Translations under genes and position numbers: made by a program
From: an uncultured Bacteroidales bacterium
GTDB lineage: Bacteria > Bacteroidota > Bacteroidia > Bacteroidales > P3
Length of the DNA stretch: 64,000 bases
Direction of reading: 5' to 3'
NCBI GenBank assembly: GCA_910578275.1
Contig: CAJTPR010000005.1
Coordinates: forward strand, 109,030 to 173,029
The notes under the pieces: model-generated
What the model saw: only the letters and a program-made list of their open reading frames with translations
Told to the model about the DNA's origin: nothing
The model's database searches: none
Shown here: positions 2,586 through 57,781 of the stretch, piece by piece
Position numbering within the stretch: position 1 is the first letter of the stretch
Layout: every line of letters starts with the position of its first letter

Positions 2586-4649
2586 GTGAAAAGGCTGCTT
2601 CCGTTCGTGGAAAGGGACGAATGGCTCTGGCCCGTAGCCGATCGCATCGAACGTCGTCATGCCGCTTATCTCGATGCCAAGCGGAGGATTGAAAAGGAAT
2701 GGGGCGGTTTGTACGAATTCGCTTCCGCGCATCTTTATTTCGGATTGCATTATCACCAAGATACCGATACCTGGACTTTCCGGGAATGGCTCCCTCATGC
2801 CCGTCATGTATTCCTGACAGGGGATTTCAACGGCTGGGACCGGACTTCGCACGCGCTTGCTCCCTTGGAGGACGGTGTCTGGGAAATAAGGATACCTGGC
2901 GCTTCGGCAAAGGGGCTTGGTCACGGTTCGCGCTACAAGACCTACGTGCAGGATTGTGACGGGAACTGGCGGATGCGGCTTCCCGCTTATACTTTTTATG
3001 CCTTGCAAGACCAGACCGGCAAGGATTTTTCCGCTCTCGTATGGCGGCCTGAAAAGGCGTTTCGCTGGTCGGAGACGGGGGAAGAAGTTCGTCCCCGGGC
3101 CGATTTTTCGAAGCAAACGCCGTTGATTTACGAGGCTCACGTAGGCATGGCCCAGGAAAAGGAGGGGGTCGGAACCTACGCCGGGTTCACGAGGAACATA
3201 TTGCCTCGTATCAAGGATGCGGGCTACAACGTCGTCCAGCTTATGGGAATCGCCGAACATCCCTATTACGGAAGTTTCGGCTATCATGTGTCCAATTTCT
3301 TTGCGCCGTCTTCACGTTTCGGTACGCCCGACGAATTGAAAGGACTGGTGAAGACCGCGCACGAGATGGGACTTTTCGTGGTCATGGACGTCGTCCACGC
3401 GCATTTCGTGGCAAACATCGAGGAAGGACTGAACCGTCTGGACGGGAGCGACGACCTGTACAGTTACGGCGGCAGGGCGGGAACGCACCCTTATTGGGGT
3501 TCGCGCATGTTCAACTTCGGCCGTGACGAGGTAAGGCGTTTCCTGTTGTCGAACCTGCGTTATTGGTTGGAGGAATTCCATTTCGACGGATTCCGCTTCG
3601 ACGGCGTCACCGCCATGATTTACTTTCATCGCGGCTATGTGGACCATTTCGGCACGTATGCCAACTATTTCGGTGCGGAAGTAGATGAAAACGCGCTGAT
3701 TCATATTTCCTTGGCCAATGATTTGATCAGGGAGGCGTGTCCCGGGACGGGCTTGAGCATCGCCGAGGAAGTGAGCGGAATGCCGGGCATCACCGTGCCT
3801 ACCGGGGAAGGAGGTTTGGGTTTCGACTATCGTCTTTCGATGGGGATTCCCGATTTCTGGATCAAGCTCGTCAAGGAATTCAGGGACGAGGATTGGGTCA
3901 TGGGCGAACTTTGGCGGACGGTGACCGACAGGCTTGTGAACGTGCCGCAGATAGCCTATTGCGAAAGCCACGACCAGGCTTTGGTAGGCGACCAGACCTT
4001 GGCTTTCCGTCTGATGGGGGCTGAAATGTACACACGGATGTCGGTGGACTCGTCAAGCCCTGTCGTGGAAAGGGGAATGGCGTTGTTAAAGATGATTCGC
4101 CTGTTCAGCCTCTTTGCCGGAGCCGAGGGTGGAGGATACCTGAATTTCATGGGCAACGAGTTCGGTCATCCCGAGTGGATAGATTTTCCGCGGCCGGGCA
4201 ACGGACAATCCTATCGGTACGCCCGCCGTCAATGGAGCCTTGCGGACAACCCGCGATTGCGCTACAAGTTCCTGGCTGCTTTCGACAAGGCCATGCTGTG
4301 TTTGGCCCGAACCCTCGACTTGCGGTGTTGCCCTCCGGCAAGGCTGTTGTCGATCGACGAGGAAAACAAGACCTTGGCTTTCGGTCTGGACGGAACGCAC
4401 CTGTTCGTCTTCAACTGGCACGTCGATCGCAGCATCCCTGATTATGAGGTTCCCGTGGAGATTCCCGGCAAATACCGTTTGGTCTTGTGCAGCGATTCGG
4501 CTTGTTTCGGAGGTTTTTCGCGTGTGGACGAAGATGCCTTTTTCTTTACCCGTGACGACGCTTCGGGCAAGCCGCGTCTTTCGGTTTACAATGTGAACAG
4601 GGCTGCCCAGGTATTTGAGCGGGTGCGGGAGCAGGTCACCGAAGGGTGA
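2586..4649 (+). CDS. glgB: 1,4-alpha-glucan branching enzyme (GH13)
   Basis: In-frame GTG at 2586 gives (M)KRLLPFVERDEWLWPVADRIERRH..., followed by GDFNGWD, HPYYGSFGYHVSNFFA, FDGFRFDGVT and ESHDQALVGD, which are GH13 catalytic-region motifs. The 5' part of the track ORF (1809-2585) overlaps lepA and is not coding. Confidence 0.85.
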   Translation: MKRLLPFVERDEWLWPVADRIERRHAAYLDAKRRIEKEWGGLYEFASAHLYFGLHYHQDTDTWTFREWLPHARHVFLTGDFNGWDRTSHALAPLEDGVWEIRIPGASAKGLGHGSRYKTYVQDCDGNWRMRLPAYTFYALQDQTGKDFSALVWRPEKAFRWSETGEEVRPRADFSKQTPLIYEAHVGMAQEKEGVGTYAGFTRNILPRIKDAGYNVVQLMGIAEHPYYGSFGYHVSNFFAPSSRFGTPDELKGLVKTAHEMGLFVVMDVVHAHFVANIEEGLNRLDGSDDLYSYGGRAGTHPYWGSRMFNFGRDEVRRFLLSNLRYWLEEFHFDGFRFDGVTAMIYFHRGYVDHFGTYANYFGAEVDENALIHISLANDLIREACPGTGLSIAEEVSGMPGITVPTGEGGLGFDYRLSMGIPDFWIKLVKEFRDEDWVMGELWRTVTDRLVNVPQIAYCESHDQALVGDQTLAFRLMGAEMYTRMSVDSSSPVVERGMALLKMIRLFSLFAGAEGGGYLNFMGNEFGHPEWIDFPRPGNGQSYRYARRQWSLADNPRLRYKFLAAFDKAMLCLARTLDLRCCPPARLLSIDEENKTLAFGLDGTHLFVFNWHVDRSIPDYEVPVEIPGKYRLVLCSDSACFGGFSRVDEDAFFFTRDDASGKPRLSVYNVNRAAQVFERVREQVTEG

Positions 4650-4663
4650 GGGCGGGCTCGGCA

Positions 4664-6331
4664 TTAGTTCCTTCTTGCGCGGTCCAATGCCTGCGGGAAG
4701 CAGCCGTAGATGACCGTGAGAAGCAGCAAGAACAGCGAGAACGTCAGGCAATAACGTCCCAATATGTCTCCGTGACGGGAGTAGAACGTCAGTTTTTCGT
4801 TGGCCCGCAGCACGCTCCTTATGCAATCGGGTTGTCCGTATCCGGTGGCTTGGAACACCTTGCCTTTCTGGTCGATGAAGCATGAAATGCCGGTATTGGC
4901 CGAACGGGCCACGTCGCGGCGGTTCTCGATGGCACGCAACCTTGCGTAGGCGGCGTGTTGGCGGTGTCCGGGCGAATCTTTCCACCAGCCGTCGTTGGTC
5001 GATACGAAGAGCAGGCGTGCGCCTTTGCGCACGTTCCATGCCACGTAGCCGCCAAAGACGGATTCATAGCAGATGATGTCCGAAAACGGAATCGGGTCTT
5101 TGAACACCATCGGTTCGGGATCCACGCCCAGCGTGCCCGTGGTGCCTCCCAGGTCGATGGCCAGTTTTTCCAGGAAACCCAGATGCTTGGCAAACGGCAT
5201 GATTTCCACACCCGGAGTGAGTTTCGACTTGTGATAGATCGGAATGTCCGTGTTCCGTCCGGCACTTATGACGATGGCCGAGTTATGCGCCCGGTAGAAT
5301 TTCAGGTACGGGTCGTCGGTCCAGCGGGAACGTCTGACGCCGGCTTGCGCCGAATCCTGCGGCGCCACTCTCGAATAGGAAGATATTCCCGCCACTACCT
5401 TTGCCTGCGGCCAGTTTTCCAGGAACCTTTGAATCCGGATGACGGACGGGCATAGGTCTATCTCGTCTTCTTGGATGTTTTCCTGCAGCATGCTTTCGGG
5501 CGTCACCACGAAACGGGTCTGCGGCGTGATTTTTCCGGAAGTCAACGTAAGCATGCGCGTGGCGGCATCCTGGGCGGAAATGCTGAATTGTTCGAGGTAG
5601 GGATCGATATTGGGTTGAACCACCACCACCTCGACGGGTTCCCCTTGCGGTTCGTAGATGGCGTGGCGCAGGAGCGAAATCGCTGCGGGAACCAGCAGGA
5701 CGCAACAGGCGGCCACGGCCGGACGTACGGGAAAGGCCTTGCGGGTCGACCATGCCTTTATCCAATGGAAAACGAGCACGTTGCTGGCCAATATCCATAA
5801 GCTTCCGCCCAATACGCCCGTCACCTCGTACCATTGGACCAGACGGGGGCAGTTGGCGAAGGCGTTGCCGAGCGTGAGCCAAGGCCAGGAAACGTCCCAA
5901 TTATGGTGAAAATGCTCGAAACCTATCCAATAGGCCATGAACAGGAGCCAGCGGTTCCCGTTCCTTTCCTTGGTAATCTTCACGAATATGTTGCGGCTTC
6001 CCACGTGAAAGAGCGTGAAGACGCAGGCCATCAACAAGGCATTGAGCGTGACGGCCAGTATCGCCGCCGGCGTGGAATACCATATCCACCATGTCACAAG
6101 GATGTTCCAGGTCAAGAAGGTGAGATACGAATAGCCGGGCACATGGTATCGTGTGCGATATTTCTTGGGAAGGCTCGATTGCGCCAGTTGCCTTGTCAAC
6201 ACGAAATCCTCCACCCAAAAGAGGGGGACGAGCGCGACGAGCGCGAGCGGGGCGAAGCCTCGTGCCGGCCAGGAAAGGGCGAGCAATACGCCGCTCAAGG
6301 CCGAAAGAAGCCAAAGGTGTCTCTTTTTCAT
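4664..6331 (-). CDS. lnt: Apolipoprotein N-acyltransferase
   Basis: 555 aa. Multi-helix N-terminus (MKKRHLWLLSALSGVLLALSWP...) followed by a CN-hydrolase-like domain (VVVVQPNIDPY..., ICYESVFG). Confidence 0.85.
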   Translation of the reverse strand: MKKRHLWLLSALSGVLLALSWPARGFAPLALVALVPLFWVEDFVLTRQLAQSSLPKKYRTRYHVPGYSYLTFLTWNILVTWWIWYSTPAAILAVTLNALLMACVFTLFHVGSRNIFVKITKERNGNRWLLFMAYWIGFEHFHHNWDVSWPWLTLGNAFANCPRLVQWYEVTGVLGGSLWILASNVLVFHWIKAWSTRKAFPVRPAVAACCVLLVPAAISLLRHAIYEPQGEPVEVVVVQPNIDPYLEQFSISAQDAATRMLTLTSGKITPQTRFVVTPESMLQENIQEDEIDLCPSVIRIQRFLENWPQAKVVAGISSYSRVAPQDSAQAGVRRSRWTDDPYLKFYRAHNSAIVISAGRNTDIPIYHKSKLTPGVEIMPFAKHLGFLEKLAIDLGGTTGTLGVDPEPMVFKDPIPFSDIICYESVFGGYVAWNVRKGARLLFVSTNDGWWKDSPGHRQHAAYARLRAIENRRDVARSANTGISCFIDQKGKVFQATGYGQPDCIRSVLRANEKLTFYSRHGDILGRYCLTFSLFLLLLTVIYGCFPQALDRARRN

Positions 6332-50307: not shown

Positions 50308-51078
50308 ATGTCTCGCATACTATACAAATATTTGGATATAGTTGGTGCAAAGTGTATGATTGGAAACCAGAATCTCCAATTCACTAATGCGTCTCAACTG
50401 AATGACCCTTTCGATTGTCATCCAAAATTAATTGACTACTCAAATGTGCCGGATAATAGACTTCACGGATGGATACCTGAGGAATGGTGGATTGAGAAAG
50501 AAGAAAACGATGCTTTCAATTTGCGCAATGATACATGGTTATGCAGTTTGTCAAAAGTTAATAATTCATTACTGATGTGGAGCCATTATTGTTATAACCA
50601 TAAAGGTATTTGTGTAGGACTTGACATGGGAAAATTGATGGAGTCAGTTCCGCCAATGTTTGGTACAATATATCATGAACCGCTTGTTTTTGATGTTCAG
50701 TATCAGGATATAATAGAGCGTCCTAACGCATATCATAGCAAAAATGATATATTCAGTTATCAATGGCGGACAAAAGCAAAGGAATGGGAATATGAGCAGG
50801 AGGTGAGATTAGTCGTGCCAAGTCCCTACGCTGCGTATGCCGCTTTTACCCCACAACAAGCTGAACAGGATAAGAAAATATGGGATTGGCGTGAGATACG
50901 CCATTATATGCCACTGAAAGGCGAATGCTTTGAGTCTATCTATTTTGGCGTCAATATAGAACAAACTGAAAAAGAAAAAATAATCCGATACGTTCGCAAG
51001 AAACTAAATCCACAACTCAAGTTATACCAAATGGAAATAGATGACAATGCTTTTAGATTGCAACCAGTAATTATATGA
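50308..51078 (+). CDS. DUF2971 family protein
   Basis: 256 aa. LYKYLDIVGAKCMIGNQNLQFTNASQLNDPFDC is the characteristic DUF2971 N-terminal signature. Function unknown. Confidence 0.65.
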   Translation: MSRILYKYLDIVGAKCMIGNQNLQFTNASQLNDPFDCHPKLIDYSNVPDNRLHGWIPEEWWIEKEENDAFNLRNDTWLCSLSKVNNSLLMWSHYCYNHKGICVGLDMGKLMESVPPMFGTIYHEPLVFDVQYQDIIERPNAYHSKNDIFSYQWRTKAKEWEYEQEVRLVVPSPYAAYAAFTPQQAEQDKKIWDWREIRHYMPLKGECFESIYFGVNIEQTEKEKIIRYVRKKLNPQLKLYQMEIDDNAFRLQPVII

Positions 51079-52097: not shown

Positions 52098-52164
52098 CAT
52101 GATGATATATCAACAAGCAAACCTATCATCATGTAATCATATCAACAAACAAACCTGTTGATAT
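52098..52164. repeat. Two iteron-like direct repeats, each embedded in its own inverted repeat
   Basis: ATATCAACAAGCAAACCT (52107-52124) lies between CATGATGAT and ATCATCATG. ATATCAACAAACAAACCT (52139-52156) is followed by GTTGATAT, the complement of its own 5' end. Confidence 0.6.
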
Positions 52165-52212
52165 GGTGATACGGAGTTTATTCCTCTTTTAGAGGAAAGC
52201 GGAGCAATCATT

Positions 52213-52376
52213 CCCGTTTACAAAGGCGAAGTACGTATGGGGCTTGATGTCGGCTTCAAGGTCAGGAGGCGGCTATGCCGTTTCCCGACAAATCTTCCTC
52301 TCGCTTCGTTGCGAGCGTATTTGTCGGAAAAACCTTGCTTCCGACCGCCCCATGCAAGAGAAGCCTTTGTAAACGG
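52213..52376. other. Nested imperfect hairpin of about 165 nt (candidate structured RNA or recombination site)
   Basis: Hand-paired helices: 52214-27/52363-76 (14 bp), 52235-43/52347-55 (9 bp), 52249-53/52341-45 (5 bp), 52257-62/52332-37 (6 bp), 52281-83/52328-30 (3 bp), 52285-93/52319-27 (9 bp) and 52300-04/52311-15 (5 bp, hexaloop). A 4-bp side hairpin lies at 52270-80. Confidence 0.6.
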
Positions 52377-52799
52377 AAACGACCGCCCCGCCCCCTCCGA
52401 CCGAAAGGAAAAAATAATATAAAGGGAGTTTGGATTGGGCAAGCACAGGTAATGTAGTCGCAATTCAGAATGTCTAGCACACTCGCCAATAATGAATATA
52501 GCAGGTTCTCTTAGTCAAGTCGGTACAATTAAAGTATTGATGATAAGGATTATTATGTCACTATTTCCGTATATGTTCACTCAAACATGACAAATGTTTT
52601 GTATAACACAAAACCTTTCGGGTTACATCTGAATGTATGTCCGTCTGAACACAGCAAGATGTCTTTTCAGCCGCTCAAAAAGATTTGAGCAGCTTGAAAA
52701 GTCTTGCCGTCTATGCGGACAATCTCACCTACAAAGTCGGGAGATTAAATTTTCAATAAAAAGATGGTTAACTATAACTTGTAAGCTAAATAAAAGTAG

Positions 52800-52807
52800 T
52801 ACATTTG
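52800..52807 (+). promoter_or_regulatory. -7 promoter box (TACATTTG) for the R-M-S gene
   Basis: Perfect TAnnTTTG, 42 nt before the ATG at 52849. Confidence 0.4.
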
Positions 52808-52848
52808 CATATTGGGGTATTATATATAATTTTGATTATAAAAGACAT

Positions 52849-55764
52849 ATGGATACAATGCCATTAGAAGCTGATACAAGGAATCTTATTGATACCGCTT
52901 TAACTAACTTAGGATGGAAGTTAAACGGAAAAGATAAGAATGTTTTCTTTGAACAGCCAAAAACAGAAGCAGAACGCAAATCTCTTGGAGGCAAACGTCC
53001 TGATTATGTGTTGTACTCAAATGAGAGTGATAGACCACTAATTGTTATTGAGGCCAAAAAGAAAGGCACTCGCCTTGATGTAGCAATGGAGCAAGGTATT
53101 AGTTATGCTCGTGCAATTAATGCTCCACTTGTATTTGCTACAGATGGAGTATTCTGTAAAGCATATCATACAGAAGCCAATAGAGCTCCTATTTTAAATG
53201 GGGAAGAAATAGACGAGTTTATCAGAGAAACTCTTGCGTTGCGGTATTTGACAACTTATGAGGTAAATACCGTAAGTCCCAAGGTTCAATATGATAGAAA
53301 AGAGTTAATCCGTATATTTGATGAAGCAAATAATATGTTACGAGGGGAAGGATTGCGTGCTGGAATTGAACGTTTTGGTGAGTTTGCAAATATACTATTC
53401 CTAAAACTTATTAGTGAAAGCGAACAAATCAAAAGAGAAAGTGGTATTAAAACGCTTTTTGATGCAACAGCATGTAGTTGGGATAGCATTAAAAATATTC
53501 CTTTTACAACTCGCATTGACTATATAAATAAAACAGTTTATGAAAAACTAAATTCATTATATAATACTGATATATTTACTCCCTTACAGATTCGAGATGC
53601 AAGTATCTTGAAAGAAATAATGGATAAGCTTGACCCACTAACGCTTACTGATGTGGATAGTGATGTAAAGGGAGATGCTTTTGAGTATTTTTTGAAAGCT
53701 TCAACTGCAACTAAAAATGACTTAGGAGAATATTTCACTCCACGCCACATTGTAAAAACAATGGTGCGTTTGGTTAATCCCCAAATTGGGGAAGCCATAT
53801 ATGACCCATTTTGTGGCACAGGTGGATTCTTAATAGAGAGTTTTCGCTATATATACAATAATATGGCGAGAACCGAAGCCAATATAAAGATGTTGCGGGA
53901 GCATACGGTTTATGGCAATGAAATTACTAATACTGCACGTATCACCAAAATGAATATGATTTTGGCGGGTGATGGGCATAGCAATATCAATATGCGTGAT
54001 AGTTTGGCAAATCCTATAGACGGGAAAGCTACATATAGAGATAATGATGGAAGTGAGTATCATTACGGATATGATATAGTCCTTGCAAATATGCCTTATT
54101 CTCAAAAAACTAAACATGGAGCATTGTATGACTTACCAAGTACAAATGGTGATAGTATTTGTGTACAACATTGTATGAAAGCAATAAATAGCACATCTCC
54201 TAATGGTAGAATGGCTTTGGTCGTTTCTGAAGGCTTTCTTTTTAGAAAGGATTTAACGAGAACACGTGAATACCTCTTGGAAAATTGCCAATTACAAAGT
54301 ATTATTTCATTGCCACAGGGCGTGTTCTTGCCATATACAGGTGTTAAAACGGATATTATATATGCAACCAAAGTAAATCAAAAGATAAAGAAGTCAGAGA
54401 AGAAAAAAGAATTTTGGTACTTTGATGTCAAAAGCGACGGATATACTTTAGATAACCATCGCCGTAAATTAGATACACATAGTGATTTGGCTAAATATGA
54501 GGAGTTTCGTAAGTTAGATGAGGACCAATCTACAGAAATGACGAATGTGGGATTTGAAATAATTCCACTCGATAAGGTGCACAAAAATGCCAATATTTTG
54601 GTGGGTAGTCGTTATCGAAAAGCCAAGATGATTGATTCAAAGTACGATGTGGTTAGAATTGAAGATGTCGCTACACTAAATAATGGATATGCTTTTCCTT
54701 TATCATTACAAGGGCAAGAGGGGACAATCCCATTCTATAAAGTAAGTGATATGAACTCTGAAGGTAACGAAGTTGAAATGAAAAAAAGTAACAATTATGT
54801 ATCAGCTGAAATTGCCAAGGCGAAAAAGTGGGGGATAGCGCCGATAGGCACGGTTATATTTCCAAAAATTGGAGCTGCTATTGCCACTAATAAAAAAAGA
54901 GTTCTAAGTCTACCCGCAATATTCGACAACAATATTATGGGTATTATATGTGGTGATAAAGTATTGCCACGCTTTATGCTATATATGTTGGAACATATAG
55001 ATATTTCTAATTGGGCGTCATTAGCTAATCCTCCATCAATTTCTCGGCAAGCAGTTCTTGAACAAGAAATTCCGTTGCCTTCTATAGAAGTTCAACAGCA
55101 AATAGTTGACGAACTTGACGGATATAGAAAAATTATTTTCGGTGCTCAATCTATTGTATCAAGCTATGAACCGCATTTGCCAAAGTTTAAGACAGGCACT
55201 ATTGTAAAGCTTTCGGATATTTGTGAGATTAATCGTTTTTCTGTAAATCCAGAACAAGAATACGGAGAAGAAACGTTTACTTATATTGATATTTCTTCTG
55301 TTACCAACGGTACGGGCAAAGTTAATAAATCACAAAAAATAAAAGGAAAAGATGCTCCCTGTAGAGCAAGGCGAGGAATGAGCAAGGGAGATATATTAAT
55401 GTCAACCGTTCGTCCCAATCTAAAGGCTTTCAGTTATGTTGATTTTGACACTAAAGGCTTTGTTGCCTCGACCGGCTTTGCTGTTTTGAGCCCCCAAAAT
55501 GTGAATGGCAAGTATCTACTTTATGCATTATTGGATGATTTTGTTGGGAACCAACTAAGCGATGCAATGAGTAAAGCAATGTATCCAAGCGTAAACAAAT
55601 CTGATTTAGAAAATTTGGATATTATTTGTCCTTCTGTTGAAGAACAGAATGGGGCGGTTATCCAAATTGAAAGAGAATTATCATTCATAAAGCCAGCAGA
55701 AGAAATTGTTTCTATTTTCACAAAAAAAATAGAGCAAAAAATTAACGAAGTTTGGGGTGAATAA
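52849..55764 (+). CDS. Single-chain restriction-modification-specificity enzyme (Type IIB/IIG-like, AloI/HaeIV architecture)
   Basis: 971 aa from MDTMPLEADTRNL. N-terminal PD-(D/E)xK nuclease (RPDYVLY...LIVIEAKKK; D at 53002, E-A-K at 53050-53058). Gamma-class N6-adenine MTase (DPFCGTGGFL, LANMPYS). Two HsdS-type TRDs separated by IPLPSIEVQQQIVDELD, the second containing GDILMSTVRPNLKAF. Confidence 0.8.
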   Translation: MDTMPLEADTRNLIDTALTNLGWKLNGKDKNVFFEQPKTEAERKSLGGKRPDYVLYSNESDRPLIVIEAKKKGTRLDVAMEQGISYARAINAPLVFATDGVFCKAYHTEANRAPILNGEEIDEFIRETLALRYLTTYEVNTVSPKVQYDRKELIRIFDEANNMLRGEGLRAGIERFGEFANILFLKLISESEQIKRESGIKTLFDATACSWDSIKNIPFTTRIDYINKTVYEKLNSLYNTDIFTPLQIRDASILKEIMDKLDPLTLTDVDSDVKGDAFEYFLKASTATKNDLGEYFTPRHIVKTMVRLVNPQIGEAIYDPFCGTGGFLIESFRYIYNNMARTEANIKMLREHTVYGNEITNTARITKMNMILAGDGHSNINMRDSLANPIDGKATYRDNDGSEYHYGYDIVLANMPYSQKTKHGALYDLPSTNGDSICVQHCMKAINSTSPNGRMALVVSEGFLFRKDLTRTREYLLENCQLQSIISLPQGVFLPYTGVKTDIIYATKVNQKIKKSEKKKEFWYFDVKSDGYTLDNHRRKLDTHSDLAKYEEFRKLDEDQSTEMTNVGFEIIPLDKVHKNANILVGSRYRKAKMIDSKYDVVRIEDVATLNNGYAFPLSLQGQEGTIPFYKVSDMNSEGNEVEMKKSNNYVSAEIAKAKKWGIAPIGTVIFPKIGAAIATNKKRVLSLPAIFDNNIMGIICGDKVLPRFMLYMLEHIDISNWASLANPPSISRQAVLEQEIPLPSIEVQQQIVDELDGYRKIIFGAQSIVSSYEPHLPKFKTGTIVKLSDICEINRFSVNPEQEYGEETFTYIDISSVTNGTGKVNKSQKIKGKDAPCRARRGMSKGDILMSTVRPNLKAFSYVDFDTKGFVASTGFAVLSPQNVNGKYLLYALLDDFVGNQLSDAMSKAMYPSVNKSDLENLDIICPSVEEQNGAVIQIERELSFIKPAEEIVSIFTKKIEQKINEVWGE

Positions 55765-55766
55765 TT

Positions 55767-56057
55767 ATGGTAGAAGTAATTGACTACACAGAAGTTCCAT
55801 ATTTGCAGGAAATATTGAGTTATCTTCCAATCAATCCTGATGATGAAGAAGATATAAATAGCTATGTCAATAATGTAACTAATTTAATTGCCGTAAATTA
55901 CAAATATGAGCAGTATCAATTTGCCTATTTTGGTGTTCATCTGCTCTATATGACTTATATTTATTGTACAGCATGGCAAATCAGTCAAATTATCCCTGAT
56001 AGATATAAAGATGAATTGTTTTTGCACGTCCATATAGTGGCAGAGAGAAAGACTTGA
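55767..56057 (+). CDS. Hypothetical protein; probably the N-terminal part of a frameshifted gene continuing at 56054
   Basis: Starts 2 nt after the R-M-S stop. Adding one T to the T5 run at 56019-56023 joins it in frame to the next ORF (…DELFFARPYSGREKDLKIEDANS…). Confidence 0.45.
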   Translation: MVEVIDYTEVPYLQEILSYLPINPDDEEDINSYVNNVTNLIAVNYKYEQYQFAYFGVHLLYMTYIYCTAWQISQIIPDRYKDELFLHVHIVAERKT

Positions 56058-56548
56058 AGATAGAAGATGCTAATTCAATATTTGCATATAGTTTATTACC
56101 GGAAAAAGATATTGCAAAACTTTTTAAAATTATATGTTTGGATAAATCCCAAATTGCAAATGTTAGTGATTTAGTAGATGCACGTAACGATATGGCACAT
56201 GCATCGGGGAAATTCAATATTCTTACAGAAGATGGTTATGATGCAAAAGGCAGTAGTATATTGTCTTCAATGAAAAATATTCATAAATGTATGAATGAAT
56301 CAATACGAAAATGGTATTCTGAAATCTTAGTTAGTTTCTGTGCTGGAGAATTTTCAGATTATAAAAAAGCGCGAGATTTATTGACAGAATATATGATTCA
56401 GAGTTTTAAATTATCGGTAAATGAATTGTTAGTTTGTAATGAAATGAGTGTAAGTGGTTTAATAACTCAACATCGCGGATATCAAACCAAACTTAAGCAT
56501 TTTAAGAAAACTGTCGCAGATTATTGCCAAGAGATGGGATATATATAG
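56054..56548 (+). CDS. Rx4H-motif (HEPN-like, Abi-like) protein
   Basis: VDARNDMAHASG, with R at 56183-56185 and H at 56198-56200, fits the HEPN Rx4-6H signature in a predicted all-alpha context. TTG start in the track. The frame is open upstream to 56015. Confidence 0.5.
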   Translation: MKIEDANSIFAYSLLPEKDIAKLFKIICLDKSQIANVSDLVDARNDMAHASGKFNILTEDGYDAKGSSILSSMKNIHKCMNESIRKWYSEILVSFCAGEFSDYKKARDLLTEYMIQSFKLSVNELLVCNEMSVSGLITQHRGYQTKLKHFKKTVADYCQEMGYI

Positions 56549-56550
56549 TT

Positions 56551-57575
56551 ATGGGTAAAAAAACTTCAAATACATAATAGTACGGCTGAATTCCTTATAT
56601 TTCAATTAGAAAGTAAAGAAGAAGGAATAGAGGTCTTATATCAAGACGAAACACTTTGGCTTACACAAGATACCATAGCTACACTATTTAATAAAGGGCG
56701 TTCAACAATTGCAGAACATTTGCAAAACATTTTTCAAAGCCTAGAATTACAAGAAGATTCAGTCTGTCGGAAATTCCGACGAACTGCTGCTGACGGAAAA
56801 AGTTATGCTACTAAATATTATAATTTAGATGCAGTCATTTCTGTCGGTTATAGAGCCAATTCTGTACGTGCTACCCAATTCCGGCAATGGTGTACCTATG
56901 TTCTCCGACAATTTGCCATACGCGGTTATGTGATTGACAAGAAACGAATGGAAAACGGAACATTCATCAATGAGGATTATTTCGAACATTTACTTGCGGA
57001 AATAAGAGAGATTCGATTGAGTGAACGCCGCTTTTATCAAAAGTTGACGGATATTTCGAGAACAAGTATTGACTATAATCGAGATGCCCCAACAACCAGA
57101 ATGTTTTTCAAGAAGGTGCAAAATAAAATGCACTATGCTGTTCACGGGCATACTACGGCAGAACTGATTGTAGAACGAGCCAATGCAGAAAAAGAGCATA
57201 TGGGACTTACTTCTTGGGAGAAAGCCCCTAACGGCAAGATTGTAAAAACAGATGTCAATAGCTAAGAACTATTTAAAAGAAACAGAATTGGAGTCAATGG
57301 GAAGAATAGTCAATGCTTTTCTTGATTTAGCGGAAGACAGAGCAACGCGTCATATTCCTATGACTATGGAAGATTGGGCTGTTCGTATCGACAAGTTCTT
57401 GGATGGTGATGACAGACCCATACTGGTTGACGCCGGCACAATATCTGCAGAACAAGCTAAGTTACATGCAGAGACCGAGTTTGAGAAATATCGCATTATC
57501 CAAGATAAGTTGTTTCAATCAGATTTTGATCATTGGGGGACAAACAATTTGTTTGGTTTTGATAAGGAAGAATAA
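56551..57575 (+). pseudogene. RhuM-family protein gene, disrupted by two frameshifts
   Basis: Strong RhuM similarity (ETLWLTQDTIATLFNKGRSTIAEHLQNIF, TAADGKSYATKYYNLDAVISVGYRANSVRATQFRQW, ...SIAKNYLKETELESMGRIVNAFLDLAEDRA). The ATG at 56551 is out of frame by one A in the A7 run at 56557-56563. A second shift lies near 57252. Confidence 0.75.
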
Positions 57576-57576
57576 A

Positions 57577-57619
57577 TGCAAAGGTTATGACTGTATTAAA
57601 AAATAATCATACCTTTGCA
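57577..57619 (+). terminator. Hairpin immediately after the rhuM remnant (no T-tract)
   Basis: 13-bp stem TGCAAAGGT(T)ATGA/TCATACCTTTGCA with one bulge and a 16-nt A/T loop. Confidence 0.3.
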
Positions 57620-57781
57620 ATCAAGAGTTATTTGACAGGATAGCACCGCAAACCACTGCAAATAGCACGGCGTCCAACTCGTTACCGTTGTTTCTCAAAT
57701 AATTCATTAAACATTTAATCCACAAATGGTTGCGTCAGGCTGTTGAAAACCTAAAATAATTCGTAAATTCACAGCCGATTT

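Follow-up and report, generated by a model that had tools for sequence, protein, structure and literature searches.

The stretch of DNA analyzed here (the window) comprises 64,000 nucleotides (nt) from an uncultured Bacteroidales bacterium (positions 109,030 to 173,029 of contig CAJTPR010000005.1, assembly GCA_910578275.1). At positions 55767 to 56548 it carries a split gene, the second of a three-gene cassette that begins with a gene for a single-chain restriction-modification-specificity (R-M-S) enzyme and ends with a RhuM-family gene (Table 1). The split gene appears as two open reading frames (ORFs) on the + strand. The first (55767-56057, 96 amino acids [aa]) has its ATG 2 nt past the R-M-S stop at 55764, and the second (56054-56548, 164 aa) overlaps it in the -1 frame. 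Both ORFs and their position behind the R-M-S stop are as described in an initial annotation of the window, which also proposed that they encode an RNase of the HEPN superfamily on the basis of the peptide ARNDMAH in the second ORF. This peptide is present: ORF2 contains VDARNDMAHASGK, with R44 and H49 encoded at 56183-56200.

Table 1. Features of the cassette in the window
Feature	Position	Strand	Basis
Intact single-chain R-M-S enzyme (AloI-like type IIB layout)	52849..55764	+	Pfam domains; 84% identity to the Paraprevotella clara gene; without stops or frameshifts
5' part of the pseudogene of the predicted HEPN family, residues 1-82 of ancestral ~260 aa	55767..56013	+	ATG frame; translation fits intact relatives up to ...IIPDRYKD
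Inactivating lesion, ancestral GTA codon (GATGTAATT) short of one T	56013..56014	+	DNA alignments with L001, L002, and L004; same in L051-L054
3' part of the pseudogene of the predicted HEPN family, ancestral residues ~84-260, -1 frame	56015..56548	+	Frame reads IVFARPYSGREKDLK... like relatives; A4 profile 146.6 bits
T5 run, unchanged	56019..56023	+	Same ATTGTTTTTGCACG in all intact relatives aligned
RNDMAH, Rx4H (HEPN) motif; ancestral residues R140 and H145 (142/147 in P0003)	56183..56200	+	Family conservation; aligns with RN.IAH of PF18735 proteins
RhuM-family pseudogene, third cassette gene; ATG 2 nt past the HEPN stop	56551..57575	+	Pfam PF13310 in two separate pieces

The split gene and its lesion

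The 260-aa model obtained by reading through the break matched 556 proteins of ~260 aa at 100% coverage, the best of them 95% identical, which means that the gene was ancestrally one ORF. To locate the break, the DNA was aligned with that of three relatives whose gene is intact (L001, L002, and L004, Paraprevotella clara YIT 11840); these have GATGTAATT where the window has GATG-AATT. The protein of these relatives reads ...RYQDVIVFARPYSG...; the start frame of the window agrees with it to ...RYKD, and from 56015 on the -1 frame reads IVFARPYSG, identical to the relatives. The lesion is a single T lost between 56013 and 56014, in nonrepetitive sequence. The initial annotation had placed the break in the T5 run; the run exists, and adding one T to it does join the two frames, but it is identical in the window and in the three relatives, and the break lies upstream of it. 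Helices 3 and 4, the motif, and the C-terminal helical part of the protein described below are all encoded 3' of the lesion.

An inherited allele and a recent loss

In the assembly collection, 48 blocks index a product identical to the truncated 96-aa protein (at least 19 contigs, from 24 blocks). Four loci with the broken allele were fetched (L051 to L054), three from ENA metagenome assemblies and one from an NCBI metagenome-assembled genome (MAG). They are 99.95 to 100% identical to the window over 5.8 kb and share its lesion. Two of the four carry a 1066-aa form of the R-M-S enzyme in place of the 1043-aa form, so that the broken allele is found on both. Its recurrence in four independent assemblies, beside either R-M-S allele, shows the lesion to be inherited in the lineage rather than an assembly error. 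Against four intact relatives, the broken gene has a ratio of nonsynonymous to synonymous substitution rates (dN/dS) of 0.08 to 0.10, as expected if purifying selection acted over nearly all of the divergence, which indicates that the gene was lost recently. No intact allele was found in the same species, and a search of 18 genomes of the same genus did not find the cassette, RhuM-like pieces being the sole matches.

A sequencing error, a phase-variable switch, and an inactivating mutation had all been put forward in the initial annotation as possible causes of the split. We consider it very improbable that the gene is intact in the organism and was split by assembly or sequencing. Such an error is favored by the occurrence of three indels in 1.8 kb of AT-rich DNA, with one of the three in an A7 run, but the HEPN lesion lies outside any homopolymer and the four other assemblies with the identical allele come from different samples. 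The idea that slippage at the T5 run, whether by phase variation, transcriptional slippage, or -1 ribosomal frameshifting, restores the full-length protein in some cells or transcripts is, if anything, harder still to credit. A slip of one T anywhere within 56014-56054, where the T5 run lies, would rejoin the frames with three residues changed. Yet known contingency or slippage tracts are far longer than T5, the run has kept one length in every intact relative aligned and every copy of the broken allele, and G_TTT_TTG is not a canonical X_XXY_YYZ site. On either side of the run the sequence is simply that of the ancestral coding region, and the ORF is uninterrupted in 76 of 78 related loci. 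With the lesion in a GTA codon free of any repeat, and with no length variation in T5 among the intact relatives aligned and the four broken-allele copies, nothing favors a phase switch or a programmed frameshift. These comparisons identify the split as an inherited inactivating mutation, neither a sequencing error nor a repeat-based switch.

A large unnamed family with a conserved RNxxAH motif

The ~260-aa protein belongs to a large unnamed family: a search with a 20-member profile yields 420 clusters at 50% identity. When 58 members, reaching down to ~20% identity, are aligned, the sole invariant columns are the R and H of RNxxAH (R142 and H147 in the numbering of P0003, a 95%-identical relative of the window protein), and the motif is therefore more than a chance occurrence. 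N143 and G150 are conserved in at least 90% of the members. HEPN motifs have the form Rx4-6H with a polar residue (N, D, or H) after R; the window has RNDMAH, and in the family the position after R is N in the proportion just given. The family has variants of unusual length, among them P0198 (538 aa), with a C-terminal TIR domain fused (PF13676; E value, 1.5e-15), and P0177 (784 aa), with a long unassigned extension.

Among Pfam models, PF18735 (HEPN_RiboL-PSP) was matched by 18 of the 20 close members and by 22 of the 58 diverse ones (HMMER; best E value, 1.3e-7). Other, weak matches were to the Swt1, MAE_28990, AbiU2, and Apea HEPN models, and all best matches of the family were to HEPN families. 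For a profile-profile comparison, 18 bona fide PF18735 proteins were gathered from genomes; hhalign aligned the family alignment (A4) with them at a probability of 83.3% (E value, 8.6e-6) over 72 columns, with RN..AH in register. Both HMMER and hhalign thus find profile similarity to an established HEPN family. The only matches of the family profile in a PDB sequence search, to ribosomal protein S3Ae, were rejected as spurious.

An AlphaFold2 model of P0003 is all-helical and confident (predicted local distance difference test score, 82.6; predicted template modeling score, 0.82). Its helices span residues 31-48 and 52-88, followed by a low-confidence insert (88-112), and then 115-125, 129-146, which ends in the motif, and, after a loop, 157-194; a further helical region covers 204-258. 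In the HEPN fold, four helices form an up-down bundle; the motif closes helix 3 or opens the loop to helix 4, and an insert separates helices 2 and 3 (PMC3710099). The predicted order of helices in P0003 agrees with this description, although Foldseek gave no significant match.

Coupling to R-M-S and M.S genes

The HEPN-family gene is almost obligately coupled to AloI-like R-M-S genes. Surveying from the side of the HEPN-family gene, we fetched 47 genome loci, 42 of which were usable; the remaining five were two contig edges (L016 and L018) and three truncated remnants without an R-M-S gene (L031, L038, and L050). The truncated remnant in L031 adjoins an integrase gene. An R-M-S homolog (41 to 84% identity) ends directly before the HEPN-family gene in all 42 usable loci. 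The junction is a 2-nt gap, like that of the window, in 21 of them and an overlap of 1 to 29 nt in 18. From the R-M-S side, 80 metagenome loci were fetched by similarity to the enzyme (58 to 96% identity), and a full-length partner ORF lies immediately 3' of the R-M-S gene in 76 of the 78 that had room downstream. The two exceptions are L148, without a partner, and L125, in which both genes are degraded. The linkage of homologs to restriction-modification (R-M) genes and the conservation of the motif among them, on which the initial annotation had made its reading depend, are thus both borne out.

A distant branch of the family (~25% identity) ends operons that consist of an HsdR-like gene (HSDR_N plus ResIII, ~845 aa) followed by a methylase-specificity (M.S) fusion gene (N6_Mtase plus Methylase_S, 790 to 860 aa). 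A phylum sample of 400 genomes yielded the branch in six, and a Paracoccus plasmid also carries it. In the six genomes, the HEPN-family gene lies 0 to 2.7 kb downstream of the M.S fusion. An AAA_13 ATPase gene or a DUF3800 gene is sometimes found in between, and two of the HEPN-family copies in this branch are split or degraded. An earlier null result, in which no partner was seen at 29 distant M-containing loci, had been obtained with 1.5-kb flanks and mostly ordinary HsdM genes and is superseded by the six-genome result. One operon (L210) has an 869-aa AAA_13/SMC-like ATPase gene (2848-5457, - strand) between the M.S fusion gene and the HEPN gene. We take AAA_13 to be the Pfam family that includes the PrrC/RloC-type ATPases, and this operon may carry two RNase-type back-ups.

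Nowhere in the survey was an intact partner found without an upstream M.S-containing gene. In the window and in two other cases (G214 and G086), the partner alone has decayed and the upstream M.S or R-M-S gene has been kept. The HEPN-family gene is thus embedded in an R-M operon, as are the genes of PrrC/RloC type. The contexts given for PF18735, an L-PSP fusion or a ParB operon (PMC3710099, Table 1), were not seen, the neighbors in all surveyed loci being R-M-S genes or HsdR plus M.S genes. Literature searches returned nothing specific on a HEPN partner of type IIB/IIG enzymes or of M-S fusions.

The R-M-S gene, the RhuM gene, and a probable transfer of the cassette

The R-M-S ORF extends over 52633-55764 (1043 codons) and is open from 52633; its start is likely M73, at 52849. 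The first 72 codons (52633-52848) have no counterpart in the relatives, whose matches start at M73; they overlap a GC-richer structured region 5' of the gene and are probably untranslated. The single chain carries an HSDR_N nuclease, an N6_Mtase, and two Methylase_S domains (Pfam), and its translation contains the motifs PD...EAK, DPFCGTGGF, and NMPY. A nuclease, a gamma-class N6-methylase, and two target recognition domains are thus joined in one polypeptide, as in type IIB R-M-S enzymes. AloI, PpiI, and TstI likewise have an N-terminal PD-(D/E)xK nuclease, a gamma-class N6-adenine methylase, and two target recognition domains in a chain of ~970 aa; the window enzyme is likened to them by domain layout. 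It is 84% identical over 971 aa to the 977-aa P. clara gene product, and its best solved relatives are type I HsdM/HsdS subunits and RM.BsaXI.

The second R-M-S allele of the lineage (L052 and L054; 1066 versus 1043 aa) differs by a 69-nt in-frame insertion relative to window positions 53986-54021. The insertion falls in the methylase domain, between motifs I and IV. It is made up of a direct duplication of 36 nt (ATCAATATGCGTGATAGTTTGGCAAATCCTATAGAC) together with the 33 nt of new sequence that the duplication flanks.

The RhuM gene is broken as well. Alignment with the intact P. clara gene (311 aa) shows an additional A in the A7 run at 56557-56563 and the loss of 2 nt at 57254/57255. R-M-S/HEPN/RhuM triads are also present in P. 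clara, in L121/L122, and in a fecal “Bacteriophage sp.” contig (L064).

The cassette lies in an island at ~50.0-57.8 kb with a G+C content of 33 to 42%, compared with ~56% for the window. Over 5.6 kb (window 52134-57760 versus L004 4356-9999), it is 92 to 94% identical in DNA to that of P. clara YIT 11840, its flanks are unrelated, and the host genome has a G+C content of ~56%, which points to a recent horizontal transfer. Within this otherwise similar cassette, the specificity region of the R-M-S gene at 54579-55067 has no nucleotide similarity to the P. clara cassette, which suggests a swapped target recognition domain and a different recognition sequence. Relatives also occur in Clostridia, Bacteroidales, Victivallaceae, and a MAG labeled Micrarchaeota (L037). 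A stand-alone DUF2971 gene in the island (50308-51078) matches the PADLOC candidate defense family PDC-S31 (E value, 3.8e-35).

Relation to known defense systems

The nearest precedent in gene context is PrrC with the type Ic R-M system EcoprrI (and likewise RloC), in which a gene for a HEPN-type Rx4H RNase also lies in an R-M operon (PMC3710099). PrrC is held inactive by EcoprrI and freed by T4 Stp (PMC3710099), and the logic that we propose is alike, with a nuclease that would be latent under the R-M enzyme and freed when a phage blocks restriction. The two differ in makeup. PrrC and RloC have a large N-terminal ABC ATPase that regulates the nuclease, whereas Pfam, NCBIfam, and PADLOC find no ATPase domain in the ~260-aa protein; its partner is a single-chain R-M-S or M.S fusion, and that of PrrC is a three-subunit type I enzyme. 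None of the searches run detected sequence similarity between the ~260-aa protein and PrrC.

In profile, the nearest family is PF18735 (HEPN_RiboL-PSP, of the Abi2/Swt1 clade), with an alignment that takes in the RN.xAH motif and the helix after it. PF18735-type domains are found in validated phage defense systems (PMC10952713) and are reported in PD-T4-2, PD-T4-5, PD-T7-3, and ApeA. The family matches only the second half of the 191-position PF18735 model, however, and has an extra conserved C-terminal helical region of ~60 residues; none of the PADLOC models for the PD-T systems or ApeA matches the ~260-aa protein.

A third comparison is with Ronin (an HsdM-HsdS decoy plus RonA) and EcoR22I, where a toxin gene is likewise tightly linked to an HsdM/HsdS module. 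The RonA toxin is neutralized by HsdMS and unleashed when anti-restriction proteins of the Ocr/ArdA type bind HsdMS (bioRxiv 10.1101/2023.04.06.535777). RonA is a 61-aa membrane protein without a HEPN domain, and Ronin usually lacks a nuclease, whereas the loci of the present family have an R domain or HsdR. Ronin offers the best experimental model of how an M.S-linked effector could be switched on.

Discussion

Taken as a whole, 55767-56548 is likely to be a recently inactivated pseudogene of a ~260-aa HEPN-superfamily protein, one whose presumed role is that of an RNase back-up controlled by the R-M-S enzyme. The intact family protein probably cuts RNA, judging from its motif, and probably serves as a back-up defense behind the restriction enzyme. 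Because of the invariant dyad, the translational coupling, the one-to-one pairing with M.S-containing genes, and the TIR fusion, we infer an RNase effector under the control of the R-M enzyme, with a role like that of PrrC or Ronin. Such a protein would be a metal-independent RNase, made together with the restriction enzyme in a fixed ratio and kept silent by it. Release would follow once the methylase-specificity core is put out of action by a phage, for instance through an anti-restriction protein that mimics DNA, and the freed RNase would cut host or phage RNA and so abort the infection, in a way comparable to PrrC with EcoprrI or RonA with HsdMS. It is tempting to go further and to see the family as a dedicated anti-anti-restriction effector of fused M.S enzymes (AloI-like R.M.S and HsdR plus M.S) that docks on the M.S core, is triggered by a phage DNA mimic or another inhibitor bound there, and stops translation; we put this forward tentatively, as a possibility with rather less than even chances.

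Several results weigh against the assignment to HEPN. The read-through protein of the window scores 17.1 bits against PF18735, for which the gathering cutoff is 28.4, and covers model positions 112-190 only; P0003 scores 20.5 bits, also below the cutoff, and few family members come near an E value of 1e-7. The HEPN-family protein has no match in PADLOC or NCBIfam. A conserved acidic residue in helix 2, of the Ex3[KR] type, was not seen among the 58 members, in which H60 is conserved instead. Foldseek searches of PDB and BFVD with the confident model returned no significant neighbor, the best HEPN-labeled matches being MtlR 6kcr_C (E value, 7.0) and a phage MAE_28990-like protein (E value, 2.3), and the fold call therefore rests on the profiles, the motif, and the predicted topology.

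These points would suit a protein whose likeness to HEPN is spurious and which has some other all-helical fold with a conserved R-x4-H: nothing is significant by Foldseek, and most single-sequence Pfam scores are below the gathering cutoff and cover only ~80 residues. We judge this to be quite improbable, given that every top Pfam match is a HEPN model, that the profile-profile probability is 83% with the motifs in register, and that the motif stands at a helix end before a loop and a long helix, with an insert ahead of it, as HEPN is defined. The main rival accepts the fold and questions the activity; here the partner would be a noncatalytic accessory or regulatory subunit of the M.S-containing enzyme, acting on the balance of restriction and methylation, on assembly, or on target choice, and no RNase toxin. 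The tight coupling of translation points to a stoichiometric complex, Foldseek of PDB and BFVD yielded no structural match to a known RNase, and some HEPN families are noncatalytic binders (PMC3710099). Furthermore, the R-M-S gene is intact here without its partner, which is hence dispensable for methylation and viability. On the other hand, the sole invariant residues are the R and H that are catalytic in HEPN RNases, and R is followed by the usual N, whereas noncatalytic HEPN domains typically lose the motif (PMC3710099), and the TIR fusion in one relative fits an effector better than a subunit. An accessory subunit thus seems unlikely to us. That the protein forms a distinct unnamed family within the HEPN superfamily, nearest to RiboL-PSP-HEPN, is in our view very likely. 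The HEPN-like character proposed in the initial annotation accordingly stands on profiles, motif, and predicted helix order, without the structural match that had been looked for, and its statement that the protein could not be placed in a named family still holds, with PF18735 below the cutoff and PADLOC and NCBIfam silent.

The two-layer defense module of the initial annotation, with restriction as the first line and an RNase as the second, exists as a pairing of genes in the relatives, at the level of the family, and is defunct in this genome. Only the R-M-S layer is intact here; the HEPN and RhuM genes are dead, and with them the two- or three-layer module of the relatives. Both genes are to be marked as pseudogenes, and the defense capacity of the island is that of the R-M-S enzyme (and of the DUF2971 gene) only.

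HEPN genes in R-M operons are an established theme, with at least 16 clades reportedly described in 2013, and the present family is an uncharacterized addition to it; we know of few such genes, PrrC apart, that have been put to the test. The family suits such work, being small in protein size, very widespread in gut bacteria, and provided with two invariant residues as ready mutants, and its near one-to-one pairing with a single-polypeptide restriction enzyme means that a two-gene construct would rebuild the whole system. If the family is indeed a dedicated anti-anti-restriction effector, the repeated decay of the HEPN gene alone (in the window, G214, and G086) would reflect the cost of the gene, and many type IIB/IIG-like enzymes now annotated as stand-alone would be two-component sense-and-suicide systems.
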